Shown one piece after another: positions 20,501 to 36,423 of a stretch of DNA of 37,290 nt. Numbering within the stretch: position 1 is the stretch's first letter; the number at the start of each line of letters is the position of its first letter. The DNA lies in the IMG/VR virus record IMGVR_UViG_3300028394_000043. One strand, given 5' to 3'. The notes beneath the pieces were generated by a model that saw only the letters and a list, made by a program, of their open reading frames with translations, was not told where the DNA came from and searched no databases. Made by a program: the position numbers and the translations under genes. This stretch comes from a virus. Lineage: Duplodnaviria > Heunggongvirae > Uroviricota > Caudoviricetes.

Positions 20501-20504
20501 TTAA
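2586..20504 (+). CDS. Giant collagen-like (Gly-Thr-Ser)n fibre protein, 5972 aa
   Basis: ~223-aa non-repetitive N-domain, Gly-X-Y repeat at aa 224-5707, ~265-aa beta-rich C-domain. Third codon positions vary while the protein repeat is conserved, showing this is the coding frame. Confidence 0.92.
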   Translation: MSNLNYKNPLSPLIANGSQTSLRTSTFGTTFSVLNTGGFMEVYTLNDLIYNIPIGSYGDIEFSGNTIPIQLWKGTGSSFSFDTLTLNSDNISSGRRRLGMLVYVYETNQIYQYSIDNYNTLWSDALGASGPGGNTVVVSDFGTTIKNNTPEGQTFINTWIDSTIEGVNGVTRPNARWRILATSSTDIYVTGGTYFSSSTTLDLYRNDGVTVSITGFTSGGGGTGTSGTSGTSGTSGIDGTSGTSGIDGTSGTSGIDGTSGTSGIDGTSGTSGIDGTSGTSGTSGTSGIDGTSGTSGTSGTAGTSGIDGTSGTSGTSGTSGIDGSSGTSGIDGSSGTSGIDGSSGTSGLSGIDGIDGTSGTSGTSGTSGTSGTSGTGGTSGTAGTSGTSGTSGTTGTSGTSGTSGTSGTSGTTGTSGTAGTSGTSGIDGTSGTSGIDGTSGTSGIDGTSGTSGLSGIDGLDGTSGTSGTSGTTGTSGTSGTTGTSGTSGTTGTSGTSGSTGTSGTSGTSGTTGTSGTSGTTGTSGTSGTTGTSGTSGTAGTSGTSGTTGTSGTSGTSGTSGTSGIDGTSGTSGTAGTSGTSGTSGIDGTSGTSGIDGTSGTSGIDGTSGTSGIDGTSGTSGLSGIDGLDGTSGTSGTSGTTGTSGTSGTSGTSGTSGTSGTSGTTGTSGTSGTAGTSGTSGTSGTTGTSGTAGTSGTSGTSGTSGSSGTSGTSGTSGTSGTSGTSGTSGTSGTSGTSGTSGTSGTTGTSGTSGTSGTSGTSGTSGTSGTTGTSGTSGTSGIDGTSGTSGTSGTSGTSGTSGTSGTSGTSGTSGTSGTSGTTGTSGTSGTAGTSGTSGVNGTSGTSGTSGIDGTSGTSGIDGTSGTSGTSGIDGTSGTSGIDGTSGTSGIDGTSGTSGTSGTSGLSGVDGIDGTSGTSGTTGTSGTSGTSGTSGTSGTTGTSGTSGTAGTSGTSGTTGTSGTTGTSGTSGTSGTSGTSGTTGTSGTSGTSGTSGTSGTSGVNGTSGTSGIDGTSGTSGIDGTSGTSGTTGTSGTSGTAGTTGTSGTSGTSGTAGTSGTSGTSGTSGTAGTSGTSGTSGTSGSSGTSGTSGTSGTTGTSGTAGTSGTSGSSGTSGTSGTSGTSGTSGVNGLSGVNGTSGTSGIDGTSGTSGTSGSTGTSGTSGTSGTSGTSGTTGTSGTSGTSGTSGTSGTSGTAGTSGTSGSTGTSGTSGTSGIDGTSGTSGTSGTSGTAGTSGTSGTTGTSGTSGTAGTSGTSGTSGTAGTSGTSGTSGIDGTSGTSGIDGTSGTSGIDGTSGTSGLSGVDGMDGTSGTSGTSGTSGTSGTSGTSGTSGTSGTSGTSGSSGTSGTSGTSGTSGTSGTTGTSGTSGTSGTAGTSGTSGTSGTSGTSGSTGTSGTSGTTGTSGTSGTSGTTGTSGTSGSTGTSGTSGTTGTSGTSGTSGSAGTSGTTGTSGTSGINGTNGTSGTSGTTGTSGTTGTSGTSGTTGTSGTSGTSGTTGTSGTSGVNGLSGVNGTSGTSGTTGTSGTSGTTGTSGTAGTTGTSGTSGSSGINGTNGTSGTAGTSGTSGTAGTSGTSGTSGTTGTSGTSGTSGTSGTSGSSGTTGTSGTAGTSGTSGTSGTSGTSGTSGTSGTSGTAGTSGTAGTSGTTGTSGTSGSTGTSGTSGINGTNGTSGTTGTSGTSGINGTNGTSGTSGTTGTSGTSGINGTNGTSGTAGTSGTSGTSGTAGTSGSTGTSGTAGTSGTTGTSGTSGTSGTSGTTGTSGTSGTSGTSGVNGLSGVNGTSGTAGTSGTSGTSGTSGINGTNGTSGTTGTSGTSGTSGTSGTSGTTGTSGTSGTSGTTGTSGTAGTTGTSGTSGTSGTSGTSGTSGTSGTSGTSGTTGTSGTSGTSGTSGTSGTSGTSGTTGTSGTSGTSGTAGTSGTTGTSGTAGTTGTSGTSGTAGTSGTTGTSGSTGTSGTSGVNGTNGTSGTTGTSGTSGTTGTSGTSGSTGTSGTAGTSGSTGTSGTSGTSGTTGTSGTSGTTGTSGTSGTAGTSGTSGTSGINGTNGTTGTSGTSGTTGTSGTSGTTGTSGTTGTSGTSGTSGTTGTSGTSGTSGTTGTSGTSGSTGTSGTAGTSGTSGTTGTSGTSGTTGTSGTAGTSGTTGTSGTSGTTGTSGTSGINGTNGTSGTSGTTGTSGTSGTTGTSGTSGTSGTSGTSGTSGVNGLSGVNGTSGTAGTSGTSGTTGTSGTSGTTGTSGTSGTSGTSGTSGTSGTAGTSGTSGTAGTSGTSGTSGTSGSTGTSGTSGTSGTTGTSGTSGVNGTNGTSGTSGTSGSTGTSGTTGTSGTTGTSGTSGVNGTNGTSGTTGTSGTSGTSGTSGTTGTSGTSGTSGTSGTAGTSGTSGTTGTSGTSGTSGINGTNGTSGTSGTSGTAGTSGTTGTSGTSGTTGTSGTSGTAGTSGTSGTSGTSGVNGTNGTSGTSGTSGTSGTSGTTGTSGTSGTAGTTGTSGTSGSSGINGTNGTSGTTGTSGTSGINGTNGTSGTTGTSGTSGTSGTSGTTGTSGTSGVNGTNGTSGTTGTSGTTGTSGTSGTTGTSGTSGTSGTTGTSGTTGTSGTTGTSGTSGTSGSTGTSGTSGSTGTSGTSGTSGTSGTSGTSGTSGTSGTSGTSGTTGTSGTSGTSGTSGVNGLSGVNGTSGTSGTSGTSGTTGTSGTTGTSGTTGTSGTSGTSGSTGTTGTSGTSGINGTNGTSGTTGTSGTSGTSGTAGTSGTSGTSGTTGTSGTSGVNGTNGTSGTTGTSGTSGTTGTSGTSGTSGTSGTTGTSGTTGTSGTSGTTGTSGTSGTTGTSGTSGTSGVNGTNGTSGTTGTSGTSGINGTNGTSGTSGTTGTSGTSGSTGTSGTSGTTGTSGTSGTAGTSGTSGTAGTSGTSGTSGTSGTTGTSGTTGTSGTSGTTGTSGTTGTSGTSGTTGTSGTSGTSGTSGTSGTSGTSGANGVDGAVGPTGASGTNGTTGTSGTSGTSGTSGTSGINGTNGTSGTSGTSGTTGTSGTSGSTGTSGTTGTSGTSGTSGSTGTSGTSGTSGTSGTSGTTGTSGTAGTSGTSGINGTNGTSGTTGTSGTSGSMGTSGTSGTSGTSGSTGTSGTSGTSGTSGVNGTNGTSGTSGTTGTSGTTGTSGTAGTSGTSGINGTNGTSGTTGTSGTTGTSGTSGTTGTSGTTGTSGTSGTTGTSGTSGTTGTSGTSGSTGTSGTTGTSGTSGSTGTSGTTGTSGTSGSTGTSGTSGVNGTNGTSGTTGTSGTSGTTGTSGTSGTSGTSGTSGSTGTSGTSGTSGTAGTSGINGTNGTSGTSGTAGTSGTTGTSGTTGTSGTSGTTGTSGTSGINGTNGTTGTSGTAGTSGTTGTSGTSGTTGTSGTSGTSGTSGTTGTSGTTGTSGTSGVNGTNGTSGTSGSSGTSGTSGANGVDGAVGPTGASGTNGTSGTSGTTGTSGTTGTSGTSGTTGTSGTSGTTGTSGTTGTSGTSGINGTSGTSGTSGTAGTSGTTGTSGTSGTTGTSGTSGTTGTSGTSGVNGTNGTSGTSGTSGTTGTNGTSGTSGTSGTTGTSGTAGTSGTSGTSGTSGTTGTSGTTGTSGTAGTSGTSGTSGTSGTSGTTGTSGSTGTSGTSGTTGTSGTTGTSGTSGTSGVNGTNGTSGTSGTTGTSGTSGTSGTSGVNGTNGTSGTTGTSGTSGTTGTSGTSGTSGTAGTSGTSGTSGTSGINGTNGTSGTSGTSGTSGTTGTSGTSGSTGTSGTSGTAGTSGTSGINGTNGTSGTSGTSGTAGTSGTTGTSGTSGSTGTSGTSGTSGTSGINGTSGTTGTSGTSGVNGTSGTAGTSGTSGTTGTSGTTGTSGTSGVNGTNGTSGTSGTTGTSGTSGTSGTSGVNGTSGTTGTSGTTGTSGTSGTSGTSGTSGTTGTSGTSGTTGTSGTSGTSGANGVDGAVGPTGASGTNGTSGTTGTSGTSGTTGTSGTSGINGTNGTSGTTGTSGTSGINGTNGTSGTSGTAGTSGTTGTSGTSGTSGTSGTSGTSGTSGTSGTTGTSGTTGTSGTSGTSGTSGTSGTTGTSGTSGTSGTSGVNGTSGTSGTSGVNGTNGTSGTSGTSGTTGTSGTTGTSGTSGTSGSTGTSGTSGTSGTSGTSGTSGTTGTSGTTGTSGTSGTSGTTGTSGTSGSTGTSGTSGVNGTNGTSGTSGTTGTSGTAGTSGTTGTSGTSGSTGTSGTSGTTGTSGTTGTSGTTGTSGTTGTSGTTGTSGTSGTSGVNGTNGTSGTSGTSGINGTNGTSGTTGTSGTSGTSGTSGTTGTSGTSGTSGTSGTSGVNGTNGTSGTSGSSGTTGTSGTTGTSGTSGTSGTSGTSGSTGTSGTAGTSGTSGINGTNGTSGTSGTSGTTGTSGTSGSTGTSGTSGVNGTNGTSGTSGTSGTSGVNGTSGTTGTSGTSGINGTNGTSGTTGTSGTSGVNGTNGTSGTSGTSGTSGTTGTSGTSGTSGTSGTTGTSGTSGTSGTSGINGTNGTSGTSGSSGTSGTRGTSGTSGTTGTSGTSGTSGVNGLSGVNGTSGTAGTSGTSGTTGTSGTTGTSGTSGTSGVNGTSGTSGTTGTSGTSGVNGTSGTAGTSGTTGTSGTSGTTGTSGTSGTSGTTGTSGTTGTSGTSGTSGTTGTSGTSGTTGTSGTSGTTGTSGTTGTSGTSGVNGTNGTSGTSGTTGTSGTSGTSGTTGTSGTSGTTGTSGTSGTSGINGTSGTSGANGVDGAVGPTGASGTNGTSGTTGTSGTSGTSGTSGTSGTSGTSGINGTSGTTGTSGTTGTSGTTGTSGTTGTSGTSGTSGTTGTSGTSGTAGTSGVNGTSGTSGTSGTAGTTGTSGTSGTTGTSGTSGTSGTSGVNGTNGTSGTTGTSGTSGSTGTSGTTGTSGTSGTSGTTGTSGTSGVNGTSGTSGTAGTSGTTGTSGTSGTSGTTGTSGTSGTTGTSGTSGINGTSGTTGTSGTTGTSGTSGVNGTNGTSGTSGTTGTSGTTGTSGTSGVNGTSGTTGTSGTSGTSGVNGTSGTSGTSGTTGTSGTSGTTGTSGTTGTSGTAGTSGTSGVNGTSGTTGTSGTSGTTGTSGTAGTSGTAGTSGTTGTSGTSGTSGINGTSGTTGTSGTTGTSGTSGTSGTSGTTGTSGTTGTSGTSGTAGTSGVNGTNGTSGTTGTSGTAGTSGVNGTSGTSGTSGTTGTSGTSGTSGTSGVNGTSGTTGTSGTSGTSGTSGVNGTSGTTGTSGTSGSTGTSGTSGTSGINGTSGTTGTSGTSGTAGTSGVNGTSGTTGTSGTSGTSGTSGINGTSGVNGTNGTSGTTGTSGTSGVNGTSGTTGTSGTSGTTGTSGTSGTSGTSGTTGTSGTSGVNGTSGTTGTSGTTGTSGTSGVNGTSGTTGTSGTTGTSGTSGVNGTSGTTGTSGTSGVNGTSGTTGTSGTTGTSGTTGTSGTSGVNGTSGTTGTSGTTGTSGTRGTSGTSGTTGTSGTTGTSGTTGTSGTSGTSGINGTSGTTGTSGTSGTSGINGTSGTTGTSGTTGTSGTSGINGTSGTTGTSGTSGINGTSGTTGTSGTSGVNGTSGTSGANGIDGVAGAGGTNGTSGTSGINGANGTSGTSGTSGTAGTSGTSGTRGTSGTSGTTGTSGTSGINGTSGTSGTSGINGTSGTSGTTGTSGTSGTSGTTGTSGTTGTSGTRGTSGTSGTTGTSGTTGTSGTTGTSGTTGTSGTSGVSNSNATAVSVTNANTTASTFYPVFVTTDGSSQTLYVDKESTAATSLSYNPNTAYLYVGLGISSSAVLTGSFGFNIGIYSQIGGLAPGLTTDGVSGLLLGDVNAGGASTAFIGPTYVDNAELTSGGLKFNERTTYKQPTSNIGYGDTVYYGSSGGALTAGLIYYLNTAGAWTIANSNVVSSSKYMLGIALGTSISNGMLVRGYAKFAVGNYASVTIGQILYLGTTNGYFQSTAPASTAQVVRVVGYCVDATNDIIYFCPDNTWVEIA
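3255..19706 (+). repeat. Degenerate 9-bp coding repeat GGN-ACN-(TCN/AGY/ACN), 16,452 nt = 1828 triplets
   Basis: First Gly codon at 3255; last triplet (GVS) ends at 19706. All 20 internal landmark Gly codons I checked lie a multiple of 9 nt from 3255. Confidence 0.95.
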
Positions 20505-20518
20505 TAAATTAAAATAAT

Positions 20519-21217
20519 ATGGCAACAATAACATCTGCGGCAACAAGAGGTAGTGTAAAAGCACAAGGGATTAGTTCGTTATATAGTACTTGGGAAGAAA
20601 TTAGAGATTTCACAAATGGAACAAGTGTTTCCGTAAATACAAATGATGCTCAAGCAATTAGAGTAAGTGATGTGACAACTAAATTAACAACAACTTGGAC
20701 TTGCCATAGATATTTTATGGCGTTTGACACTTCGGCAATAACGTCAGTTCCCGGTTCGGCAACATTGTATATCTATGGTAATACAACCGCCACTAGTGAT
20801 TTAATTGCGGTTAAAGCAACAGCCCCAACAACATCCACAAATATTGCAACAACAAATTATTCAAATATTTCCGGTTATCTCGCCACTAATAGTATGGCAG
20901 GATTAGTTACCGACTATTCATCAGTCGCAGGACCGGGATTAAGTACTACTGCATATAACGCAATCCCTTTAAACTCCGCAGCACTATCTGATATGAATAG
21001 TTTAACAACATTTAAATTAGCGTTAGTTAATTATTCACAAGATTATTTATATGTGGCACCATTAGGTGGTCAAGATTTAAGGATGGGAATAAGTATTACA
21101 AATGCCCCGTATATAACATATACGGGGTTTGGAGGTAAAATTTATAGTATATCATTGGCGAGTATTAGTAAGGTTGATGATACCGCAATATCAAATATTG
21201 GTAGTATAAATGTTTAA
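20519..21217 (+). CDS. Putative fibre-tip/adhesin partner protein, possibly a DNRLRE/CBM96-like beta-sandwich
   Basis: 232 aa, 14 nt downstream of the giant gene. HRYFMAFDTSAI..SATLYIYG resembles the DNRLRE-type pattern; short C-terminal I-x-x-I repeat tail. Confidence 0.5.
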   Translation: MATITSAATRGSVKAQGISSLYSTWEEIRDFTNGTSVSVNTNDAQAIRVSDVTTKLTTTWTCHRYFMAFDTSAITSVPGSATLYIYGNTTATSDLIAVKATAPTTSTNIATTNYSNISGYLATNSMAGLVTDYSSVAGPGLSTTAYNAIPLNSAALSDMNSLTTFKLALVNYSQDYLYVAPLGGQDLRMGISITNAPYITYTGFGGKIYSISLASISKVDDTAISNIGSINV

Positions 21218-24200
21218 TCAAATAAATGTTGTATTTGGTTTATAACCATTTCTGATGTTATTGATTTGTGACACTCAAATTGACGTTGAGTTCCTTTATG
21301 TTCGGGACACCAATTCCAATCACCTTTATCAAATTTAAATTGTGGTTTATTCCAACATCCATTACATACGGAGGTGTTAATAATCCTCGTACAATTAGTG
21401 GTAAACTCGTGGTCAGGTTCAGTAAAATTAGAAATCATAACAACGTGTTTTCCAATCGCCCAAGATAACCAAGAAAGACCACTTGATAACCCAATAAAAA
21501 AATCGCTATTATGAATAACATTCATAGTATTTTCAATTGAAGTATCTTTTATTTTTGTAACATTTTTTAAGTCATCTCCTTTTTTGGAAACATTTATAAC
21601 TTTGTAACCTTTTAAAACTAAATAATCAACCAATTCTTGCCAACCCGTTGGGTTGTTCCAATATTTTAATCCTGATGTTGATTCATTTGCTATTGTCACA
21701 TATTTTGTGTTATACGGATTACCTTTTGGTGTAAAATTAATCTCAGGTTTTATTTCAGTAAATTCTAAACCAAGTATGTTGGTTACCGTTTTCTGTAATG
21801 GAATAGTATTTGGTAATTCAGGTTCGCAATCTTCGTTATAAAACCAACCCAATTTATACATACCATAAAGGTTATGGACTGTTACTCCCGGTTCAACAAA
21901 CACTAACTCAGGATATGTTTTCTTAAATAATTTATTCCAAAATGTTGACACAATTACAATACAATTATGTTTTTTCTTAAATTCTAATGCGTATGGTATC
22001 CAAGCAATTGTGTCACCTAAAGACTTACTATCATATGCGATATATACTCGTTTACCGGTATAGTCTAAAGTATTCTCATATATAATATTACCATCTTTAG
22101 TGATTTGAGTGTTCCATTTAGTGTAATACTCTCTATTTAATTTAACCCACGTATTAAGTGAGATATTATTTTCATATTGAACAACACCTTGTTCATCTCT
22201 GAATTTAACATTATAAATCCCATCATCAGTTCCTTTAATCTCTAAAAAAGGTTTCTCAACAAAATATTGAGTCACCTCAATTTCTAATGATAGTTTTTCT
22301 TGTTTAGTAATATCCATATTGTTTACTTTCTTATATAAATTTTCGTGTTTCTTTGCAAAAGTTTCTGATTGATTAACCGGTAATGTATATGATACCTCAC
22401 TATCCAATAACTGTAATAATTTGTTCTTGGTAGATTGTAAATTATCATATATTGGTGTAATATACTGAATAAACATATCCATATATTGTGGTAAGTTTCT
22501 TGATAATATTTTAAGACCATATGATGCAGCTTCTCTTAAAACTAATGGATTACATTCCCAAGTTGAATTAAACATAAGGACATCCGCGGATTTCATAAAT
22601 AAATGAACATCGTTTCTTTCACCCCACACAATAACATTAGAGGGGATGTCTTTCATTATTGGTTCCCAGTATTCTTGGAAATTTGGAGCTTGATTTCCTA
22701 TGAAATGAAATTGTAATTCCGGATTGGTATTTTCCAATAACCTTGCTAATTCAATACCTTCTTTTTGGTTTTTACCTTGTGTCCAAAGACCAACATTAAT
22801 GATATGTTTTTTAGATAAATCAAAACCTAATTTAATTTTTGACGATAATTTATCATCTTCAGTTGTAATATTATTATCTATAGGAAATTCTAATACTTCA
22901 CTATACGATGGCATATCTGTAAATGATTTTTCTTTATGGTATGGAGTACAAAATGCGTATGCCTCAGGGTGAAATTTTTTGGATAAATATGGGTTAAAAA
23001 ATATGTTATGACAAGTTTCAATAACTTTCCAAGTTCTATTATTATTGTATAGTAAATTCATTAATTCTGATGAAACATTATTAAACGCATCAAAGGATTC
23101 TAACATCTCATCTAAATGAACGATATCTATATTATTTTTTTTGATAATATCTATCACTTCTAATTTATTTTCACCTAATGTCCAAAAATGAGATGGAGGT
23201 ATTAATTTTTGGATTTCACTTTTTTGAACAATATACTCGTAACTAACATTTGAATATTCAACAACAAATATTTCAAATATGGTGGTATATTTTAATAATG
23301 TTTCAATTCTTTTTAATAAGAAACTTGGCATACCTCCGGTTGAAAGATGAGGACACAAGAATAAAATTTTAATTTTAGAAGTCTCATTTTTATTATCAAT
23401 TAAATCAAATATTTTTTCAATTTCGGATTCTCTTTTTTCTCCGTGAAATACTTTAATATTTGTTTTATTTTTTGGTAATAAATAAAATTCTTTTACCATT
23501 GTATCTGACTCAACATTAGTTGTTAAAAAATGATTAACAGTATCCGCACCATTAACATTAATATAAACCATAGGTAACCCTTTACCTTCTGTTGATAATT
23601 TCCAAGTCAATACATTATAAATTGTTTCATCAGAAAATGGGCAAATATGTGCAACGTCAACTATTTTTGAAAATAGATTTTTACATTCTTTCCATATTAA
23701 AATAAAATCTTTAACATCTTTAGTTCCAACTATAACATTAGTTGTTCTATAGTGACTTCTCTGTTCAGGTAACATCCCAAAAAAACTCATCATAGGCCAT
23801 TCTAAAGTATTTGTTAAATCAACCGAATTATCTTTTTTCCAAAATGGGTTTCCTTTTAAAGACCCATCTGAATTTACAATTAAAACATATTCATACGGAC
23901 CTAAACTTGCCAATGGAAATTCTTTAACTTCTTTACAATAGTCAAATAAATCATCAATATTTGTGTTTGCAATACAATCCGAGTCTAAATAAACCCACTC
24001 ATCTATTTGAGATTCACAAGCGTCCAACATACTATCAATTTTAGCCCCTAACGATAGAAAAGTTCTTAATGTTTGTCTATTAACATATTGATTACCCTCG
24101 TAGGTTGTAAAACTATCTTCAGATAGTGAGGGTAAATTTAAATCTAACCTTTTACATTTACAGATAGAGGTTAGTTTATCTGTTGCGGTATAATCAATAG

Positions 24201-24303
24201 TATAAACAATAATATCATATTTTGAATATTTTTTGATGCTACGAACTAATTGATACGTAATATCTTCATAATTTTTTGTTGTGTGTGTTATAAAACTTCT
24301 CAT
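21214..24303 (-). CDS. Three-domain glycosyltransferase: GT-A (GT8-like) + GT4 + Aah/TibC-like protein O-heptosyltransferase domain
   Basis: aa ~1-305: YLDSD DxD, FSDE, VFHG. aa ~310-665: PHLSTGGMP, NVGLWTQGKNQ, ECNPLVLREA (GT4 E-X7-E). aa ~675-1029: SLGDTIAW, FIGLSSGLSWLSWA, CNGCWN..WCP..FEC (four-Cys iron finger of Aah/TibC). Confidence 0.85.
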   Translation of the reverse strand: MRSFITHTTKNYEDITYQLVRSIKKYSKYDIIVYTIDYTATDKLTSICKCKRLDLNLPSLSEDSFTTYEGNQYVNRQTLRTFLSLGAKIDSMLDACESQIDEWVYLDSDCIANTNIDDLFDYCKEVKEFPLASLGPYEYVLIVNSDGSLKGNPFWKKDNSVDLTNTLEWPMMSFFGMLPEQRSHYRTTNVIVGTKDVKDFILIWKECKNLFSKIVDVAHICPFSDETIYNVLTWKLSTEGKGLPMVYINVNGADTVNHFLTTNVESDTMVKEFYLLPKNKTNIKVFHGEKRESEIEKIFDLIDNKNETSKIKILFLCPHLSTGGMPSFLLKRIETLLKYTTIFEIFVVEYSNVSYEYIVQKSEIQKLIPPSHFWTLGENKLEVIDIIKKNNIDIVHLDEMLESFDAFNNVSSELMNLLYNNNRTWKVIETCHNIFFNPYLSKKFHPEAYAFCTPYHKEKSFTDMPSYSEVLEFPIDNNITTEDDKLSSKIKLGFDLSKKHIINVGLWTQGKNQKEGIELARLLENTNPELQFHFIGNQAPNFQEYWEPIMKDIPSNVIVWGERNDVHLFMKSADVLMFNSTWECNPLVLREAASYGLKILSRNLPQYMDMFIQYITPIYDNLQSTKNKLLQLLDSEVSYTLPVNQSETFAKKHENLYKKVNNMDITKQEKLSLEIEVTQYFVEKPFLEIKGTDDGIYNVKFRDEQGVVQYENNISLNTWVKLNREYYTKWNTQITKDGNIIYENTLDYTGKRVYIAYDSKSLGDTIAWIPYALEFKKKHNCIVIVSTFWNKLFKKTYPELVFVEPGVTVHNLYGMYKLGWFYNEDCEPELPNTIPLQKTVTNILGLEFTEIKPEINFTPKGNPYNTKYVTIANESTSGLKYWNNPTGWQELVDYLVLKGYKVINVSKKGDDLKNVTKIKDTSIENTMNVIHNSDFFIGLSSGLSWLSWAIGKHVVMISNFTEPDHEFTTNCTRIINTSVCNGCWNKPQFKFDKGDWNWCPEHKGTQRQFECHKSITSEMVINQIQHLFD

Positions 24304-25256
24304 TGTTGGATTTTATAATTTAAAGACCCTTTTTGTCTATATTCATTTTTATTTTCTTCGGTAATAATAAATTGTTTTTGAGAGATGTAACCATTATCAT
24401 TTATTTCTATATTAATAATTTCATTGTCATTAACGTATTGGTAATACCAATGTCTAGCCGTTAAAGATAAATGATGATTATCATTTATTGTAAAAAATAT
24501 TAATTCTTCATTTGCTATATTATTTAACCATAAAATTAAACGATTATCAATATTATTCCCAATAATCTCAACAGAATAATCGTGAGTAATAATGTTAATT
24601 CCGCTATCATTAAAAAAAGAAGATGATTTTTGATTGATTATTAAAAAATTAAAATTTTGATTATTAACTTTATCGTATAATATTCTTTCTAATGATTGCC
24701 CCGGATTTACAACAGTATTAATTAGTTGATTAATTGATGAAGGTAATTTTATATTCTCAAGATAATAGTTTGGGACTCCTCCAAAAATTAAAGTCTCATA
24801 AATTAAATATTCTTCAGCACATTGATGAAAGAAAATCATTTTTTTATTTTGTTCAAACATTTTCTCGCGCAATGTTTCAAGTTTACTTAAATCTTTATCA
24901 CCAAATAAATTATCTGATTCAAGAAAATAAAAAAACTCATACCCCAAATTATTACAAAAATTGATTCCATTATTAATGTTTTTACTGACCGTTAGTGTGT
25001 GACCATTATTGTTGATTATTGTGTCAAAGTCGGTTGTTATACAAAATGTTATTGGTGTTAAATCATACGGTAATAATAAATTTTCATTATCGTATAACGT
25101 ATAATTAACTTTTTCTTGTATATATGTCGGGATTGGATAGTGAGAAACAACCATTAAGTCATAATCTGTATTAGATAATATATCTATACAGTCTGATAAC
25201 ATTTTTTCACTATTATTAGTTGAAGGATAACACCCTATTATAATAATTTTTTTCAT
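24300..25256 (-). CDS. Hypothetical protein, possible divergent GT-A glycosyltransferase
   Basis: 318 aa. Rossmann-like start (IIIIGCYP..LMVVSHYP) and FFYFLESD at a DxD-like position; ATGA overlaps with both neighbours. Confidence 0.45.
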   Translation of the reverse strand: MKKIIIIGCYPSTNNSEKMLSDCIDILSNTDYDLMVVSHYPIPTYIQEKVNYTLYDNENLLLPYDLTPITFCITTDFDTIINNNGHTLTVSKNINNGINFCNNLGYEFFYFLESDNLFGDKDLSKLETLREKMFEQNKKMIFFHQCAEEYLIYETLIFGGVPNYYLENIKLPSSINQLINTVVNPGQSLERILYDKVNNQNFNFLIINQKSSSFFNDSGINIITHDYSVEIIGNNIDNRLILWLNNIANEELIFFTINDNHHLSLTARHWYYQYVNDNEIINIEINDNGYISQKQFIITEENKNEYRQKGSLNYKIQQ

Positions 25257-25894
25257 AACATATCTTTAAATCTATATTCTCTTTCAATCCTATCATTTTC
25301 ATTCCCTTTTTGTATAATAATACAATTTGGTGCAAATGTAATCATTTTAATATTTAATGGATTTGAGTGTAAATTATAATGACTGTTGACGGTGTGATTA
25401 AGTTTTGTGAAATAATCAACAATATTTAGATTTCCGGTATTATAACCATATAATGTGGTATTAGGGTTCCAATAACTACATTCAATATCTTCAATAATAT
25501 AGACACCTCCGTCTTGTAATAAATTTTCAAATAAATAATAAAAACATTTTAATTGATGGTCGGCTATATGACTACCATCATCAATTATTATTTTACAATC
25601 ATCTATTTTAGATGAAACACTTATTAAATCATCTATATTACTTTGGTCTCCCATAAAAATTTCACCTCTTTCAGTAATTGAAGAATGTCCAATATCCATC
25701 CCATATATTTTAGCAAGACTAAAATATGTTTCCCATAATTTATAAGATTTTCCCTCATCAATACCAATCTCTAATAATGAGAACTTTTCATTTTTAAATT
25801 TATCTAAAAATATAGGATAAATTTCTGTATATTGATGATATGTTGATTTATCACAATCAAAATTATTTGATAATTTGGTCATTAATTCATTCAT
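25253..25894 (-). CDS. Class I SAM methyltransferase, MycE/TylE-like sugar O-methyltransferase type
   Basis: LLEIGIDEGKS (motif I), IYGMDI, GDQS, IIIDDGSH, GGVYIIEDI. Confidence 0.8.
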   Translation of the reverse strand: MNELMTKLSNNFDCDKSTYHQYTEIYPIFLDKFKNEKFSLLEIGIDEGKSYKLWETYFSLAKIYGMDIGHSSITERGEIFMGDQSNIDDLISVSSKIDDCKIIIDDGSHIADHQLKCFYYLFENLLQDGGVYIIEDIECSYWNPNTTLYGYNTGNLNIVDYFTKLNHTVNSHYNLHSNPLNIKMITFAPNCIIIQKGNENDRIEREYRFKDML

Positions 25895-25898
25895 AGTT

Positions 25899-27470
25899 TT
25901 ATTCTATATTTAATTTGTGTAATGATATTAATTTATTGTCATTGTCGTATCCCTCAATTTTAATGTATTCAGTTATAACGTAATTAGATAAATCTATATA
26001 AAAAAGTGTTTTAGATTTTAATGTATAATATTCAATTTCATAAATTAAATTGTCCGTTAAATCTTTAATTTTTAATTTAATATATGGTATATCTAATAAT
26101 GACCTAAATATTAATCGATTATCCTTTATTTCAACATTAACTATCGCCCCACCCGAAAAGAAGTTTAAATCACATAAAAGATTAACCCTATCTTCTTTTT
26201 TATATCCTGTGACGTGAACTATAAAATCTCCCGGATTCCAACATAGGTCATTAACTCCAAAATAGTTGAATACCATAAACGGAGAATTTATATACCAAAA
26301 TCTGTTTAAAATTTTTTCATCAATAATTTTAATATGAGGGGCGAATTCAGGTTTAAGTATAGTTATTCTAGCCTGTCTACCTTCGTAGTCGTGAGTAAAA
26401 AAATCCATACCATTAGGATATTCTTTTGCCTCCCAAATATCTTCTAATATTTTTAAACCAAACTCGTCGTTCTTAACTAAAAATTGACTTGTTATGATAT
26501 TATCAGTATTAAATGGGGTGATTGTTGGGGTATCAATTGCCGGATTATTATGACACGGAACAATAAATGAATAATCGTCATCAATTATTGTTTCCAATTT
26601 TATTGTGGTATTCATAATTAAACAATCCAAATCAATAAAAAATAACCAATCAAAATTATTAGTTTTCAAAACATCTATTGATGATGATATTTTAGCCCAA
26701 CAAACACTTCTATCGAAATTTTCAACTTTATGTGGAATTAATGTATATCCGTGTAAATCACAATATTTTTTAATATTTCTATCTACGGTTATCTCTTTCA
26801 TTTTTTCATAATTGTCGTCGTAAACAATTAAAACCGCAATCCTTTTAGTCTCTAGTTTTTTTTTTAAAGACCAAGTACCAAACCGCTCATTAGTTATTGT
26901 TGGTATATAACCATTCTTTTTGCAAAATTCGTCTACGGCTGGATTAACACCAAATACTCCGTGATAAAATTCACCATTCCATATATGTTTATCTTTTTTA
27001 TTTTCCGCAAAATTTGGGTCGTTATACCAATCAATATTCATATAATCGTGACCACATAGATACCCACCCAGTTTCAATTTAGGGTACCATAAATTAATAT
27101 CCTGAACAACATAATCATATGCGTGATTTGCATCAATATAAACAAAGTCTAATGAGTTATCTTCAAAAATATCAGAAGAAACTTCTGAAGACGCTCTAAC
27201 CATAATTGCTCTATCTTCATAACCTGAGATATTATTCATCGCCTCACCATAAACTCCATTTACAAAATTACCGTGGTTACTTGAATCTAAGTATTCTTCG
27301 TCACTTAATGGTCTCCACACATCAACCATATATAGGGTTCCTCCCCACATATCTAAAATTTCTTTTGAGAACTGCCCTTTAAATGTTCCAACTTCAACAC
27401 CTTTCCCCAATGGGAATTCTTGAGTGATTTCTTGAATTAATTCGTTTCTTGTTATATCTCTTCTTATCAT
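25899..27470 (-). CDS. Fusion: Methyltransf_24-like methyltransferase + GT34 (MNN10/GMA12)-like glycosyltransferase
   Basis: N-half: GVEVGTFKG, DFVYIDANHAY, GGYLCGHDY, GVNPAVDEF. C-half: YCDLHGY, WAKI, DWLFFIDLDCLIMN, YEG, GDFIVHVTG. Confidence 0.82.
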   Translation of the reverse strand: MIRRDITRNELIQEITQEFPLGKGVEVGTFKGQFSKEILDMWGGTLYMVDVWRPLSDEEYLDSSNHGNFVNGVYGEAMNNISGYEDRAIMVRASSEVSSDIFEDNSLDFVYIDANHAYDYVVQDINLWYPKLKLGGYLCGHDYMNIDWYNDPNFAENKKDKHIWNGEFYHGVFGVNPAVDEFCKKNGYIPTITNERFGTWSLKKKLETKRIAVLIVYDDNYEKMKEITVDRNIKKYCDLHGYTLIPHKVENFDRSVCWAKISSSIDVLKTNNFDWLFFIDLDCLIMNTTIKLETIIDDDYSFIVPCHNNPAIDTPTITPFNTDNIITSQFLVKNDEFGLKILEDIWEAKEYPNGMDFFTHDYEGRQARITILKPEFAPHIKIIDEKILNRFWYINSPFMVFNYFGVNDLCWNPGDFIVHVTGYKKEDRVNLLCDLNFFSGGAIVNVEIKDNRLIFRSLLDIPYIKLKIKDLTDNLIYEIEYYTLKSKTLFYIDLSNYVITEYIKIEGYDNDNKLISLHKLNIE

Positions 27471-27500
27471 TTAATTAAAAACTAATAGTTTATTATGTAT

Positions 27501-27530
27501 AAAATAATAAAAAGTCATTAATGAATCAAG
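27501..27530 (-). promoter_or_regulatory. Candidate host-type promoter for the minus-strand glycosylation cassette
   Basis: Minus strand reads cTTGATT-N17-TATTTT (overlapping TTATTATTTT), ~30 nt upstream of the ATG at 27470; AT-rich context weakens this. Confidence 0.3.
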
Positions 27531-27569
27531 TTTAAAAAAAAACTATTTATGGAAAAAGATTTATAATTA

Positions 27570-27577
27570 TATTTATA
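27570..27577 (+). promoter_or_regulatory. TATTTATA motif, with a second TATTTAT at 27544-27550
   Basis: Exact octamer 3 nt before the ATG at 27581, plus aacTATTTATg 30 nt upstream. Confidence 0.55.
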
Positions 27578-27580
27578 AGG

Positions 27581-29914
27581 ATGTTAACAATAGAGATTAC
27601 AAGTTTATCGGGACACCCACCTTACAATTTATCAATATGTGATATTTCGTATGCTAATTGTTCTTTAGTTGCCACTAATGTTATGGTTGCTCCGGTTATT
27701 TTAACTGTTCCAACATTATTACAATCCGCAACACAATTAATTGTGTCTGTTACCGATTTTTTAGGATGTCAATATTTTGAAGTGATTAATTGTTTAACTC
27801 CGACACCAACACCAACAATTACAACAACACCAACAGTAACTCCAACAAATATTTCTTGTAGTTGTATTACATTTGTTAATGATAATCCGGCTAGTTATGG
27901 TTACGAATATACCGATTGTGACGGATTTACTTACACATATAAATTAGATGCTTATACAACAGTATATGTTTGTGGTAAAGACCCTAATGTTTTTGGTGGT
28001 CCTGTAACCTATACAATCGGTTCACCTTGTGTTGACAATACTTGTCCATTCCCAAGTCCAACACCATCAGGGACACCAACTCCAACACCCACGTTACCAC
28101 CAATAGTTGGTTATTTTGAAGATTGTTGTAATTCATCGAATCAATTTACAATTTCAGACATTCCCGTTTCATTCTCACCATTATCAGGAATATATTTTAT
28201 TGATGTTAAAGGGTTTATTGGTTGTGCGACATTTATCCCAAGTACAACTTCGGGGGATGTATATTCATATGGTGCTATGAGCACATCTTTTTTTACTTGT
28301 GACGATTGTTTTAAATTAAACCCATTTTACACCTGTGTTACCCCAACACCAACATCAACACAAACACCTACACCAACCGTAACACCAACAATAACACCAA
28401 CAATAACGTTAACACCTAGTATAACCTCAACTATTACTCCAACAGTTACCCCAACAATTACTCAATCAGTTACTCCAACTATTACCCCTACTATTACCGC
28501 AACTAGTACTACGACACCAACGGTAACTCCATCAATTACCGCAACAAGAACTGTTACACCAACTATTACCTCAACAAGTACTTTAACACCCACCTCAACA
28601 CCAACAAATACTGCAACGATAACTCCATCTATAACGCCAACTAATACTGTCACACCGACTGTTACACCAACTCAAACTCTAACACCTACATCCACAGTAA
28701 CTCCAACTATGACTGAGACTCCAACAAATACGCCAACACCTACTATAACGGAAACTCCAACACCTACACCAACTAATACATTAACCCCAACAAGTACGCC
28801 ACAACAAATGGTTTTACAACTATTGGGATGTTGTGGAGGAATAACAGAGTATGTTTTAGATAACCCGACACTTTACTCATTACCGGGAGTTTATACCGCA
28901 ACAAATGGTTTACCTTATGAGGTTGTTAATAATACACCAATACCAGGTGTCCCAACAGTAGTGATAAATGATACCTTTAATTATAATAGCTGTAGTTATT
29001 GGTTTTCATTTTTCGCAACTTCTTGTCCTACACCAACACCAACACCAACAAATACTCAAACACCGACTCCAACAGTAACAACAACCCCAACAACAACACC
29101 AACAACAACACCGACACCTACTACATTACCAATTACTAATCCTGAAGCGTTTGCTTATGCTTCACAAGTTATCGCTTCAGGTGGTTCGATTGATTATACA
29201 ACAGCATTAGCTTTAGACACTTTATTTACCGATTTACAAAGTTATGGTTTATATAGTCTGTTAGAAGGGTTTTATCCTATGTTAGGAACCACTTCGGCAA
29301 CACAAGCAATTAATGCCAATGGAAATACCGCATATGATTTACAACTTAGTGGTGGTTGGATATTTGGTTCTTTGGGAATGCAAGGTAATGGAATCAACAC
29401 ACAAGCTTACACAGGTAAAGATTATGTTTATATAACAGGTAATGAATTAGATAACACTCACTTTTCAATATATGGAACGGTACCAAATAACACACCAAGT
29501 AATGGGGATTTATCAGTTAGTGGTAGTATTTCCCGATGGGTAACTATAACCTTAAATAGAATAGGTGCTGGAACAGGTCGTTATGAATATGATTGTAATT
29601 CGGGAAGTGATGCGTCACCTAATTTAAACTCAGGTGATTTTGTTACCATTTCTACTCAGGGTGGTAGTACATATGCCTATCAAAATGGTGTAGCTGCAAT
29701 TCCTAGTAGTGCTGGAAGTATAACATCTTTTTACGACATAGCATCATTATATTTAGGGGTGTCTTATAATGTTAGTTGTTCATCATATGTTGGTCGTTCA
29801 GTAAATACATTTGGATGGTCTAGCTTTGGTGGGTTTATGAGTACATTAGATATGGCAACTTATCAAACTATTGTCAATACATTTATGACATCAATCGGAA
29901 GAAATACTTATTAA
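27581..29914 (+). CDS. Modular Cys-rich / Pro-Thr mucin-like putative virion fibre protein with C-terminal head domain
   Basis: 777 aa: four small Cys-containing modules separated by PT tracts (longest ~150 aa, nt ~28340-28800), then a ~260-aa C-domain beginning [29 protein letters not shown]. Confidence 0.75.
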
Positions 29915-29915
29915 T

Positions 29916-30143
29916 ATGAAAGTAACAATTTTAACAACAGAACAAAAAGACATTCTAAATAAACAAGAGGTGTGTCCAAAATTAACATTTAACCCGGTTC
30001 AGGATGTAAATGAAGATTGGGTTATTTCTGAAAAAGAAATAAATGATTGTGTTAACCCCAATTTTATGTGGGTAAAAGAATTAGTTTTAACTGATTGGTT
30101 AGGTTCGTATGTTCCACCAATAATAAGTGAAGAAGAAATATAA
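29916..30143 (+). CDS. Small acidic protein, possible assembly chaperone/partner of the upstream fibre
   Basis: 75 aa, starts 1 nt after the upstream stop; LTTEQKD..FNPVQD..WVIS..E..WVKEL. Function is inferred from position only. Confidence 0.55.
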   Translation: MKVTILTTEQKDILNKQEVCPKLTFNPVQDVNEDWVISEKEINDCVNPNFMWVKELVLTDWLGSYVPPIISEEEI

Positions 30144-30170
30144 ATAATGTCTTAACTCACAATAAGTAAT

Positions 30171-30200
30171 CTTTATATTTTCTAACTCATTATTATCTTT
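30171..30200 (+). promoter_or_regulatory. Candidate host-type promoter for the plus-strand glycosylation cassette
   Basis: CTTTAT-N13-TTATTATCTTT(tg), a near match to the Bacteroidota -7 element TAnnTTTG, ~20 nt before the ATG at 30220. Confidence 0.3.
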
Positions 30201-30219
30201 TGTTTAAAATAAGAGATAT

Positions 30220-31467
30220 ATGAAAATATTTGTACAGATAGCCGCCTATCGTGACCCCCAACTTATCCCAACAATTAAATCTATGTTGGAGAATGCTAAA
30301 AAACCTAAAAATGTTGTAATCGGAATTTGTCGTCAATATCATCCGGAAGATGGGTTTGATGATTTATCTGAATATGCGAAAGATAAACGATTCAGAGTTG
30401 TTGATGTTTTATACTCAGAATCAAAAGGTGTTTGTTGGGCAAGAAACCAAGTACAACAATTATATAAAGGTGAGGAGTATACCCTTCAAATTGATTCACA
30501 TATGAGATTTGAAAAAGATTGGGACGATACCTTAATCAAAATGATTAAACAACTTCAAAAGAAAGGTTTTGAGAAACCTTTATTAACAGGGTACGTATCT
30601 TCTTTTGACCCTGATAATGACCCGGCGATGAGAGTTAGAGAACCTTGGAGAATGTCTTTTGATAGATTCATTCCTGAAGGTGCTGTATTCTTCTTACCTG
30701 AAACAATTCCGGGATGGCAACAAATGACCGAACCGGTTACCGCAAGATTCTATTCCGCTCACTTCGCATTTACATTAGGTCAATTTAGTGTTGAGGTTCA
30801 ACACGACCCTGAGTTTTATTTCCACGGAGAAGAAATCTCAATAGCTGTTAGAGCATTCACTCACGGATATGATTTATTCCACCCACATAAAGTAGTTATT
30901 TGGCACGAGTATACTCGTAAGGGTAGAACCAAACAATGGGATGACGATAAGGATTGGGTAAACAAAAATAATTTATCTCACCAAAAGAATAGACAATTAT
31001 TCGGTATGGATGGTGAAGAGGTTACTATGGATTTTAGTAAATATGGGTTTGGTACCGAAAGAACCTTAAAAGACTATGAAATATATTCAGGTCTTAGATT
31101 TTCACATAGAGCAATTCAACAATATACATTAGACAAACATTATCCACCAAACCCAACAATCTACGAGACAGAAGAAGAATGGGAAGCAAGTTTTGCAAGT
31201 ATCTTCAAACATTGTATTGATGTTAGTTTTGGACAAGTACCTGAGAAAGATTATGATTTTTGGGTTGTCGCATTCCACGATGAGAATGATGAAACATTAT
31301 TTAGAAAAGATGCTGATATCAATGAGATTAATAATATGATGAGAGACCCTGATGGGTATTGTAAAGTTTGGAGAGAATTTCAAACAATACATAAACCAAA
31401 ATACTGGGTTGTTTGGCCGTTTAGTAAGTCAAAAGGTTGGTGTGATAGAATAACAGGTAATCTATAA
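30220..31467 (+). CDS. GT60-like (Gnt1 / Pfam 'GlcNAc') polypeptide N-acetylhexosaminyltransferase
   Basis: IFVQIAAYRDP, GVCWAR, YTLQIDSHMRF..WD, F.GEE...AVRAFTHGYDLFHP...WHEY are the characteristic GT60 motifs, including the DSH metal-binding motif. Confidence 0.88.
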   Translation: MKIFVQIAAYRDPQLIPTIKSMLENAKKPKNVVIGICRQYHPEDGFDDLSEYAKDKRFRVVDVLYSESKGVCWARNQVQQLYKGEEYTLQIDSHMRFEKDWDDTLIKMIKQLQKKGFEKPLLTGYVSSFDPDNDPAMRVREPWRMSFDRFIPEGAVFFLPETIPGWQQMTEPVTARFYSAHFAFTLGQFSVEVQHDPEFYFHGEEISIAVRAFTHGYDLFHPHKVVIWHEYTRKGRTKQWDDDKDWVNKNNLSHQKNRQLFGMDGEEVTMDFSKYGFGTERTLKDYEIYSGLRFSHRAIQQYTLDKHYPPNPTIYETEEEWEASFASIFKHCIDVSFGQVPEKDYDFWVVAFHDENDETLFRKDADINEINNMMRDPDGYCKVWREFQTIHKPKYWVVWPFSKSKGWCDRITGNL

Positions 31468-31471
31468 TCTA

Positions 31472-32200
31472 ATGGTAAAATTTAATGATATAAAGATTGC
31501 GGATATAGGGTTTTATATAAATCTTGATATACGTGAAGATAGAAAAGAAAAAATAGAATCTCAATTAATAGATTTTAATATCACCGGAGTGGAAAGACAC
31601 TCGGCGTTTTCAAAAACAAATTCTCCAACATTAAATTGTAAAACAAGTCATTTACAATTAATGAAAAAATTTTTAGAAACCGATTTTGAAACATTATTAA
31701 TATTAGAAGATGATTGTTTGTTCTTAGATGTATTAAAAGAAAACGGTGATGAAATATTTAACGAAATAAATAATACCGATTGGGATATATTTTGGTTAGG
31801 TTGTAAAAATAGGAGAATGCCATTAAAATATAAAAATAATTGTTACCGTGTTTCTTCAGTGTCTTACGCTCAATCATATTTAATTAGAAGAAAATTTTGT
31901 AAATTCATAATGGAAAATTATTCTGAAAGTAATTTTAATGGTCGTGAGTCGTTTGAACAACCTTCCGGCACTGATGAATTGTTATCATTAGCCCCATATG
32001 GTATAGATGTTGTTGCCCATCCTGAAAAATATGATTATTATAATTTAGACCAACCATTGGACGTATTACCAACAATTTATACATCATTGTGTTATAAGTA
32101 CGCATTGACAACACAATATTCATCGTATAGTAATTTATGGCATTTTGTTGTAAATTATGAAGAGTACATTAAACAAGGATTCCCAAATGAAGAAGAATAA
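31472..32200 (+). CDS. GT25 family glycosyltransferase
   Basis: FYINLDIREDR, CKTSH, LILEDD, WDIFWLG, AQSYLI. Confidence 0.85.
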   Translation: MVKFNDIKIADIGFYINLDIREDRKEKIESQLIDFNITGVERHSAFSKTNSPTLNCKTSHLQLMKKFLETDFETLLILEDDCLFLDVLKENGDEIFNEINNTDWDIFWLGCKNRRMPLKYKNNCYRVSSVSYAQSYLIRRKFCKFIMENYSESNFNGRESFEQPSGTDELLSLAPYGIDVVAHPEKYDYYNLDQPLDVLPTIYTSLCYKYALTTQYSSYSNLWHFVVNYEEYIKQGFPNEEE

Positions 32201-33668: not shown

Positions 33669-33669
33669 T

Positions 33670-34275
33670 ATGAATATTACAGGATTTTTTGTCTATAGAA
33701 ATTTAACGACAATGCAACACACTTCAATTGAAGAAAAATTTACAAAATTACTTACAGAGATAAAACCGGTTAAGGTTTTAGAGATTGGTACATCGTCAGG
33801 TGGATTAACATTATTATTGAGAGATATTTTAGACAACAATGGTTTAGAATCAACAAGATTGGTTAGTTACGATGTTAATGACCCGGTATATTTAAGACAC
33901 TACGTTAACGAAGGTTCTAAAATTGAGTTAAGAGTTGAAAACATTTTTAATCATCAATACGACAAGTTAGAAAATGGTCAAGAAGTTATAGACATTATCA
34001 CATCAGAAGGTACCACATTAGTATTATGTGATGGTGGTAGTAAAAAGAATGAGTTTAGAATATTGTCTGACTACATAAAAGTTGGTGATGTTATAATGGC
34101 TCACGATTATGCCCCAAATGAAACTTACTTCCAAGAACATATAAACAACAAAGTTTGGAATTGGTTAGAGATACAAGATACCGACATTAACGAATCTTGT
34201 GTTAAAAATAATTTAGTTCCGTTTATGGAAGAAGACTTCAGACAAGTTGTATGGGCTTGTAAAATTAAACAATAA
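33670..34275 (+). CDS. Class I SAM methyltransferase (CmcI/Methyltransf_24-like, probable sugar O-methyltransferase)
   Basis: VLEIGTSSGGLT, VSYDV, VLCDGG, GDVIMAHD. Confidence 0.75.
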   Translation: MNITGFFVYRNLTTMQHTSIEEKFTKLLTEIKPVKVLEIGTSSGGLTLLLRDILDNNGLESTRLVSYDVNDPVYLRHYVNEGSKIELRVENIFNHQYDKLENGQEVIDIITSEGTTLVLCDGGSKKNEFRILSDYIKVGDVIMAHDYAPNETYFQEHINNKVWNWLEIQDTDINESCVKNNLVPFMEEDFRQVVWACKIKQ

Positions 34276-34284
34276 TCAATTTAT

Positions 34285-36006: not shown

Positions 36007-36423
36007 ATGGAATTTTTTATTAAAAAGAAAACAACTTTACCGGTATTAAAATTACAAGTAGTTAAAGACGGTAGAAGCGACTATAATCATTTTATGAAAG
36101 AGATAGAATTATCTTCTATCTTTTTCTCTATGGTTGATGTTGAGACCGGGTTAATAAAGATAAATTCAAAACTTGCCGGGTTTGTTGAAAAAACTTTTTC
36201 TGACCCAAACGCAGAACCTGAATACTATATTTATTACCAATTTACATCAATTGATACTAATAAAGTTGGTAGATATGAAGGTCAATTCCTTCTTAGAAAC
36301 GATGACGGGGTATTAATAGTACCAATCAGAGAACAATTATTTATTAATGTTCAAGAATCATTTGTTGCTGATGATTTAATTTACGACACACCACACACTT
36401 CAGAATTTCCTTGCTGTAACTAA
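36007..36423 (+). CDS. Putative virion structural protein, BppU N-terminal-like Ig fold
   Basis: 138 aa. FFIKK..TLP.L at the start and YYQF...DT..VG.Y.GQF......LIVP near the end resemble BppU-type baseplate domains. Confidence 0.5.
   Translation: MEFFIKKKTTLPVLKLQVVKDGRSDYNHFMKEIELSSIFFSMVDVETGLIKINSKLAGFVEKTFSDPNAEPEYYIYYQFTSIDTNKVGRYEGQFLLRNDDGVLIVPIREQLFINVQESFVADDLIYDTPHTSEFPCCN

Follow-up and report, generated by a model that had tools for sequence, protein, structure and literature searches.

A 37,290-nucleotide (nt) stretch of DNA from a virus of the class Caudoviricetes (IMG/VR record IMGVR_UViG_3300028394_000043; the entire stretch is denoted the window hereafter) encodes two unrelated putative initiators of protein O-glycosylation: a TibC/Aah-type domain with the GT-B fold and a GT60-like enzyme with the GT-A fold, each of which ends or heads its own block of glycosyltransferase genes. 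Across phage genomes, the TibC-type gene is found together with collagen-like fibres consisting of Gly-X-Ser triplets, regardless of the presence of GT60, and GT60 is found together with proteins containing Thr/Pro (PT) tracts in phages that have no collagen. The interpretation we favour, with moderate confidence, is that two independent cytoplasmic systems glycosylate the phage's own proteins and are divided by substrate and hence, in practice, by residue. An earlier reading of the window from its sequence alone (the sequence-only reading) had proposed the two initiators and two glycans, split either by residue, with GT60 acting on Thr and the TibC type on Ser of the same Gly-Thr-Ser repeat, or by substrate. 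The two unrelated families are confirmed here; of the two proposed splits, co-segregation supports the one by substrate, and the one by residue on a shared repeat is not supported.

According to this interpretation, the TibC/Aah-type domain would add the first sugar to Ser, mainly at position Y of the giant fibre's Gly-Thr-Ser triplets, and the GT4 and GT8-like domains fused to it, perhaps along with the GT34/methyltransferase gene, would extend and decorate that sugar. The soluble GT60 enzyme would add an alpha-N-acetylglucosamine (alpha-GlcNAc)-type sugar to Thr in the PT tracts of the 777-aa (amino acid) protein, the 341-aa protein and other structural proteins, and this sugar would be extended by the HtrL-family protein and variable accessory transferases (in the window, GT25, two PLOD-type GT domains and a methyltransferase). 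The residue specificities are those expected by analogy with the characterized members of the two families.

The TibC/Aah-type domain and its fibres

The TibC/Aah-type domain comprises the last 333 residues (697-1029) of the 1029-aa protein encoded by the open reading frame (ORF) 21214-24303 on the minus strand. It matches TIGR04414 (hepto_Aah_TibC, NCBIfam) with 290 bits, above the equivalog cut-off of 200, over profile positions 29-373 of 374, and aligns with residues 62-383 of TibC (PDB 4RAP) with an E-value of 8.3e-48. The structure of TibC identified Asp-110 as the catalytic base, Thr-226 and Lys-230 as phosphate contacts, Trp-305 as a heptose contact, and the four Cys of the finger; TibC acts on Ser and not on Thr, in the cytoplasm, and its gene lies beside that of its substrate (PMC4358343). 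The aligned residues of the window protein, D764 (the predicted catalytic Asp, nt 22012-22014), T876, K880 and W945, correspond to TibC D110, T226, K230 and W305, and do not vary among 50 phage sequences. The four-Cys finger (nt 21271-21366) is intact, as initially noted: C980 and C983 (CNGC, nt 21355-21366), C999 (WCP) and C1011 (FEC) align with C339, C342, C358 and C370 of TibC, and no substitution of any of the four occurs in 50 distinct phage sequences; each is kept in 70-71 of the 71 bacterial homologues with less than 41% identity. Judging from this alignment, the phage domain is a true homologue of TibC with a predicted intact active site.

The GT4 domain is joined to the TibC-type domain in 77 of the 80 related loci and is the probable first extender. 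The N-terminal GT-A domain (aa 1-300) contains an invariant D107-S-D109 motif, and the fold of its structural model (pLDDT 86.9) is nearest to those of retaining GT8/GT6 enzymes (glycogenin, ABO, LARGE1). The gene for this triple transferase is the last one in the minus-strand block and abuts the end of the fibre operon, in agreement with the initial placement of the TibC-like domain at the end of a cassette, nearest to the giant gene.

The fibre encoded next to this cassette contains Thr in the X position of 87% of its triplets (nt 3246-19706), whereas the Y position is occupied by Ser (67%), Thr (17%) or Asn (9%). Gene neighbourhoods were compared within 10 kb on either side of 80 relatives of each enzyme, and ORFs with at least 30 Gly-X-Y triplets were counted as collagen-like. 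Such an ORF is present in 36 of the 80 TibC-centred loci, always immediately 3' of the TibC-type gene and convergent with it, compared to 1 of the 80 GT60-centred loci. This pairing is kept in 9 of 13 informative clusters (70% identity), and 18 of the 19 records with TibC contain collagen (PF01391), the sole exception having TibC at the contig end. In 30 distinct linked fibres, Ser occupies the Y position in 58-100% of the triplets (mean, 78%), and the X position is taken by Thr (61%) or, alternatively, Ser (26%), with Pro and Lys virtually absent. The retention of Ser in the Y position fits an enzyme family that modifies Ser rather than Thr.

At three TibC-type loci without collagen, the convergent 3' gene encodes a different long fibre, made of ~14-residue beta-roll repeats of the 'GGxxNxASGxxS' type and ending in a Peptidase_S74 chaperone domain (L159:13794-17339(-), L108:16947-20993(-) and L157:16292-20962(-)). 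These beta-roll fibres are closer than collagen to the strand-loop-strand acceptors of the bacterial autotransporter heptosyltransferases (BAHTs).

The GT60 enzyme and its partners

The ORF 30220-31467 (plus strand, 415 aa) matches the Pfam family PF11397 ('GlcNAc', GT60) with an E-value of 1.5e-72 and 245.5 bits, far above the gathering threshold of 21. For both enzymes, the family scores greatly exceed what chance would produce. The DxH...H metal motif, formed by D92-S-H94 (nt 30493-30501) and H229, does not vary among 41 aligned homologues with 35-90% identity. Searching the PDB by sequence yielded no genuine match to this enzyme. When its AlphaFold2 model (pLDDT 95.6) was compared to known structures using Foldseek, essentially all of the ~30 best matches were polypeptide N-acetylgalactosaminyltransferases (ppGalNAc-transferases), and the top PDB matches were GalNAc-T2, T4, T1, T10, T12, PGANT9 and TgGalNAc-T3 (E-values 2e-10 to 1e-8), which is the relationship expected for GT60. 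The enzyme begins at the first beta-strand, without an N-terminal anchor, and is therefore predicted to be soluble; it bears an extra beta-rich domain at the C-terminus (aa ~325-415). Its gene follows a 305-nt gap and is the first in the same-strand block 30220-35970, so that the proposed position of a GT60-like gene at the head of the second cassette holds. Metagenomic GT60 homologues (P0242-P0254) include giants of 1,300-2,461 aa in which two to four GT60 domains are arranged in tandem. Self-glycosylated linkers within GT60 enzymes were considered and rejected, given that PT tracts were detected in just 1 of 150 representatives.

The PT tracts encoded in the window contain ~10 Thr per Ser (~112 Thr vs 15 Ser in those of the 777-aa protein) and 20-35% Pro. 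A PT-rich ORF (341-1761 aa) ends less than 600 nt 5' of GT60, on the same strand, in 59 of the 80 loci, and tracts coding for TPTPTP were found in 12 of 14 records with GT60 vs 2 of 5 without it. An HtrL-family gene is located 3' of GT60 in 72 of the 80 GT60-centred loci and in none of the 69 TibC-centred loci that lack GT60. The link between GT60 and PT tracts is seen again in bacteria of many phyla, where a PT-tract ORF occurs within 10 kb at 18 of 61 GT60 loci vs 1 of 59 TibC loci, in several cases immediately adjoining the GT60 homologue, and a collagen-like ORF occurs at none of the 61 GT60 loci vs 5 of the 59 TibC loci.

Some of the genes around the two enzymes are less readily attributed. 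The 138-aa protein encoded beside the GT60-HtrL pair is found in this position in 70 of the 80 relatives and in none of the 69 TibC-centred loci without GT60, and may belong to the GT60 module. GT25-like genes (those of the window and of L082, L105, L143, L146 and L155) are located behind GT60 in some phages and, in others, directly before the TibC-type gene or fused to it. The pair of PLOD-type GT paralogues is hardly seen outside the window phage (0-1 of 160 loci). Because GT25-like genes occur in either type of cassette, the physical blocks are not strict glycan units, and the initial view of two cassettes building two glycans has to be modified accordingly. Accessory transferases are interchanged among the two systems, and neither the GT25-like gene of the window nor its PLOD-type genes can be assigned to one of the glycans.

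Independent segregation of the two systems

The two systems occur separately in phage genomes, the comparison that the sequence-only reading had suggested. Three records (G032, 82% complete; G033, 100%; G034, 76%) encode TibC and a Gly-Thr/Ser-Ser fibre but contain no GT60 and almost no PT tracts. A fourth one (G041; 272 kb, 91% complete) encodes GT60 (89% identical), HtrL and nine PT-rich ORFs but neither TibC nor collagen, and GT60 is also present in three further records with no collagen-like gene (G044, G047 and G048).

In G041, the fibre orthologue (contig positions 68218-72240; L180-L181) keeps the N-terminal domain (59% identity), with a 1340-aa non-collagen repeat shaft. Just ~0.5 kb, with no cassette, separates this gene from the homologue of the 777-aa protein gene, whereas the same interval in the window accommodates the collagen shaft, the 232-aa gene and the 6.3-kb TibC cassette. 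This difference implies that the collagen shaft and the TibC cassette were gained or lost together, independently of GT60; the type of shaft and the cassette for its glycosylation appear to be exchanged as one module.

Alternative explanations

Instead of phage proteins, one or both cassettes might glycosylate bases of the phage DNA or, to bring about superinfection exclusion, remodel a surface glycan of the host, such as lipopolysaccharide (LPS) or capsule, but we consider this unlikely. GT25, HtrL/YibB, GT4 and GT9-like enzymes belong to families that are usually annotated for the synthesis of LPS or other polysaccharides, and glycosyltransferases acting on DNA or O-antigen are common in phages. 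However, polypeptides are the substrates of the characterized members of both initiator families, the TibC-type domain scores above the cut-off of a protein-specific equivalog model, and the fold of GT60 is nearest to that of ppGalNAc-transferases. Furthermore, the cassette genes are embedded among structural genes and co-vary with particular repeat proteins in both phages and bacteria. With regard to DNA, genes of the ThyA family (thymidylate synthase or hydroxymethylase) were detected in all five near-complete relatives checked, but more than 100 kb away from the cassettes; because these matches fit a synthase or a hydroxymethylase alike, we keep DNA glycosylation at a low weight.

Quite unlikely, too, is a division of residues on a single substrate, with GT60 modifying Thr in the X position and the TibC-type enzyme modifying Ser in the Y position of the Gly-Thr-Ser fibre, to form a doubly glycosylated triple helix. 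Such a division would be compatible with the distance of both genes from the fibre gene, which is at most 10 kb in the window, with the 1,599 Thr in X and 1,221 Ser in Y of the fibre, and with the activity of GT60 relatives on Thr and of TibC on Ser only. However, Thr is kept in the X position of 51-61% of the triplets in the three phages that have the fibre but not GT60, and Ser readily takes its place there (in L138, Ser occupies 73% of the X positions), whereas Ser in Y is conserved. Moreover, GT60 is encoded in the four collagen-free phages described above and sits behind PT-tract genes rather than fibre genes.

A Skp1-type route, in which a prolyl hydroxylase would produce hydroxyproline (Hyp) in the PT tracts and GT60 would add GlcNAc to Hyp rather than to Thr, has a precedent in Dictyostelium Gnt1, a soluble cytoplasmic GT60 enzyme that transfers GlcNAc to Hyp, as well as the apparent solubility of the phage enzyme and the Pro content of the tracts in its favour, and the hydroxylase could be supplied by the host, but we rejected it as the principal explanation and regard it as very unlikely because no P4H-type 2-oxoglutarate (2OG)-Fe(II) oxygenase (prolyl 4-hydroxylase; PF13640) was detected in the window or in four of the five near-complete relatives with GT60. 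One complete relative (G017) encodes three 2OG-Fe(II) oxygenases at contig positions 312344-321891, within ~5-15 kb of the TibC-type gene; none were found in four other relatives.

Strength of the division by substrate

Several observations weigh against the proposed division of the two systems by substrate or restrict what can be said of it. The first group concerns linkage. The co-segregation is confounded by relatedness, given that the records with GT60 form one group of AT-rich jumbo phages and the controls without GT60 are other phages; Fisher tests on records overstate independence since phage records are kin. The two records that have PT tracts but no GT60 (G028 and G022) are both incomplete. 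In divergent GT60 phage lineages (55-67% identity), a PT ORF is present within 10 kb in just 14 of 34 loci; the larger records of these lineages contain TPTPTP tracts elsewhere. Similarly, 44 of the 80 TibC loci have no collagen-like ORF within 10 kb, and some of these encode an interrupted collagen at the position of the fibre (L123, PF01391, E-value 3e-82). The beta-roll fibres next to some TibC-type genes indicate that the acceptor class is a repeat fibre and not strictly collagen. Finally, the 1,910 Thr residues of the fibre could provide extra GT60 sites in the window phage.

The second group concerns the chemistry of the TibC branch. Arg-286 of TibC, which contacts N1 of adenine and underlies the specificity for ADP-sugars, is replaced by Thr in the window protein and in 48 of the 50 phage sequences but is kept in 65 of the 71 bacterial homologues with less than 41% identity. 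The thumb hairpin is ~10 residues shorter in the phage type than in the bacterial homologues (median 26 vs 36), and the thumb tip of TibC, Phe265/Val266, lies inside the deletion. Thus, the donor and the oligomeric state of the phage branch, as judged by these replacements, may differ from those of TibC. The phage branch shows 59-80% identity internally but 32-40% identity to genuine bacterial BAHTs. The gmhA gene was sought in five near-complete relatives and was not found, and the search of the phage relatives for the heptose pathway produced RfaE-domain-II matches that are just weak, generic nucleotidyltransferases, results compatible with more than one donor; GmhA-like genes are present in four of the five metagenome-assembled genomes (MAGs; mostly Bacteroidota) that hold the closest matches on genome contigs. 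The loss of Arg-286, the short thumb, the low identity and the lack of gmhA together imply that 'heptose' and 'dodecamer' cannot be transferred from TibC to the phage branch, so that heptose is at most a conjectural sugar for it. More generally, the glycans and activities of both phage branches are predicted from sequence.

A more elaborate version of the division by substrate is offered tentatively, as something possible but doubtful. Phages may have recruited a distinct TibC branch as a 'collagen serine glycosyltransferase', such that a sugar in the Y position replaces hydroxyproline and allows a proline-free chain of 1,829 Gly-Thr-Ser triplets to fold into a stable, ~1.6-micrometre triple helix. 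The separate, mucin-type GT60 system would stiffen or shield the Thr/Pro stalks, and a single virion would combine two orthogonal cytoplasmic codes for protein O-glycosylation, neither involving a lipid carrier. Because the adenine-contacting Arg is lost, the TibC branch possibly uses a donor other than ADP-heptose.

Genomic context of the window

The window is AT-rich, with a GC content of 24-39% outside the repeat region of the fibre gene. It consists of the fibre gene, the convergent block of four minus-strand genes (21214-27470), the gene for the 777-aa Thr/Pro protein and the block of six plus-strand genes for enzymes (30220-35970); further proteins with Thr/Pro tracts are encoded at both ends (Table 1). 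The PHROGs search produced generic collagen and tail-fibre matches only. The stops of the convergent 232-aa and 1029-aa genes overlap by 4 nt (21214-21217), which leaves no space for a terminator between them.

Table 1. Features of the window discussed in the text
Feature	Coordinates	Strand	Family, motif or remarks
Partial ORF	2-361		Also contains a Thr/Pro tract
341-aa protein	1542..2567	+	Two Thr/Pro tracts; further candidate GT60 acceptor
5972-aa fibre	2586..20504	+	N-terminal domain, 1829 unbroken Gly-X-Y triplets, C-terminal globular domain; PF01391
232-aa protein	20519..21217	+	3' of fibre gene; no family match; just 2 related loci encode homologues
TibC/Aah-type O-glycosyltransferase domain (aa 697-1029 of 1029-aa protein)	21217..22215	-	TIGR04414; 4RAP
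GT4 domain (aa ~301-696 of 1029-aa protein)	22216..23403	-	Glycos_transf_1; GT-B
N-terminal GT-A domain (aa 1-300 of 1029-aa protein)	23404..24303	-	D107-S-D109
318-aa protein	24300..25256	-	Minus-strand cassette; no family match; homologues in 17/80 TibC-centred loci
213-aa protein	25253..25894	-	Minus-strand cassette; no family match
523-aa Methyltransf_24 and GT34-like galactosyl/xylosyl-transferase fusion	25899..27470	-	First gene of minus-strand cassette
777-aa protein	27581..29914	+	Six Thr/Pro tracts; directly 5' of GT60; proposed GT60 acceptor
GT60 polypeptide GlcNAc-transferase-like enzyme (415 aa)	30220..31467	+	PF11397; DxH at nt 30493-30501
GT25-like glycosyltransferase	31472..32200	+	Accessory; varies among relatives
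PLOD-type GT domains, two paralogues	32200-32937 and 32934-33668	+	Accessory
Methyltransf_24-like methyltransferase	33670..34275	+	
561-aa HtrL/YibB-family protein	34285..35970	+	Extra C-terminal half; GT60 partner
138-aa protein	36007-36423	+	No assigned function; kept beside GT60-HtrL pair

A megablast search of the phage collection with the window yielded no match. At the protein level, close relatives were identified on IMG/VR viral contigs (248 for GT60 and 443 for the TibC type), some of which are 270-326 kb long and 91-100% complete, which suggests that the window originates from an uncultured lake jumbo phage. In the bacterial collection, the closest matches to both enzymes are on short or unplaced contigs of Bacteroidota MAGs (L195 and L308-L312): Sediminibacterium (60%) for the TibC type, and a Bacteroidetes MAG (87%) and Saprospiraceae MAGs (71%) for GT60. 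Such contigs may represent phage DNA that was binned with the MAGs; otherwise, they hint at freshwater Bacteroidota as the hosts.

Relation to known systems and implications

The TibC-TibA and Aah-AIDA-I systems of Escherichia coli (BAHTs; TIGR04414; 4RAP/4RB4) share with the window a homologous GT-B catalytic domain (E-value 8e-48) in which the Asp, the Thr/Lys phosphate contacts, the heptose-contacting Trp and the four-Cys iron finger appear, by alignment, to be kept. The enzymes are cytoplasmic, or predicted to be so in the case of the phage, and the gene of each lies beside that of a highly repetitive, Ser-rich known or proposed substrate, implying multi-site modification. Unlike the BAHTs, the window enzyme is phage-encoded and fused behind GT8-like and GT4 domains, its neighbour is a proline-free collagen-like fibre (a beta-roll in some relatives) rather than an autotransporter beta-helix, and it belongs to a branch in which Arg-286 is replaced by Thr and the thumb that builds the dodecamer is shortened.

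The protist GT60 family consists of alpha-GlcNAc-transferases: OGNT of Trypanosoma cruzi modifies Thr of mucins, the Golgi pp-alphaGlcNAcT of Dictyostelium modifies Thr/Pro-rich coat proteins, and the cytoplasmic Gnt1 modifies Hyp of Skp1. The phage enzyme resembles these in the PF11397 domain, the DxH...H metal motif, a fold nearest to that of the GT27 ppGalNAc-transferases and the linkage to mucin-like Thr/Pro tracts and, like Gnt1, appears to be soluble. It differs in its phage or bacterial origin, the extra C-terminal beta-rich domain, the HtrL/YibB partner and the lack of a P4H-type prolyl hydroxylase in the window.

With respect to collagen, Hyl (hydroxylysine) is glycosylated by GT25 and LH3/PLOD in mimivirus and animals, and glycosylated hydroxy-amino acids in the Y position can substitute for hydroxyproline as stabilizers of the triple helix. 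Other glycosylated collagen-like proteins are BclA of Bacillus anthracis (pmid 15152001) and the cuticle collagen of Riftia, with galactosylated Thr in the Y position (pmid 8757292). The window shares with these the O-glycans on Gly-X-Y, which are here proposed, and the GT25-type and PLOD-type GT domains, and differs in the proposed Ser acceptor, the absence of Lys/Hyl and the TibC-type GT-B initiator. A sugar-based stabilization of the helix in the window fibre would be a purely conjectural extension of these examples.

In the literature collection searched, neither TibC-type enzymes nor GT60 were connected with phages in any paper. Among published phage systems, the closest is the O-glycosylation of mycobacteriophage virions, where enzymes encoded by the phage glycosylate Ser/Thr/Pro-rich segments of its structural proteins in the host cytoplasm (Freeman et al. 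2023, pmid 37329881, as cited in PMC12619734). As outlined in the citing paper, this system shares the principle proposed here, phage-encoded enzymes with the phage's own structural proteins as acceptors, but its enzymes come from other families, the sugars are carried by short tails at the C-termini of capsid and tail-tube subunits and not by long PT stalks or by collagen-like shafts on the micrometre scale, and there is a single system. The four core groups of glycosyltransferases in the 'moraphage' paper (PMC12619734) could not be tied to the window clade. The window adds to this picture both systems side by side and a natural comparison of their presence and absence.

If the proposed division is correct, phages possess two orthogonal enzyme-acceptor pairs for cytoplasmic protein O-glycosylation, and virion glycosylation reaches well beyond the case of mycobacteriophages. 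The compact pairs, each consisting of one soluble initiator and a simple tag (GxS or TP), would then be attractive tools for bacterial glyco-engineering, with testable acceptor codes. The stabilization of giant, proline-free collagen-like fibres would be explained, and the BAHTs, known only from virulence autotransporters, would have a large environmental branch (443 matches in IMG/VR, over 5,000 metagenomic proteins) aimed at other repeat folds.

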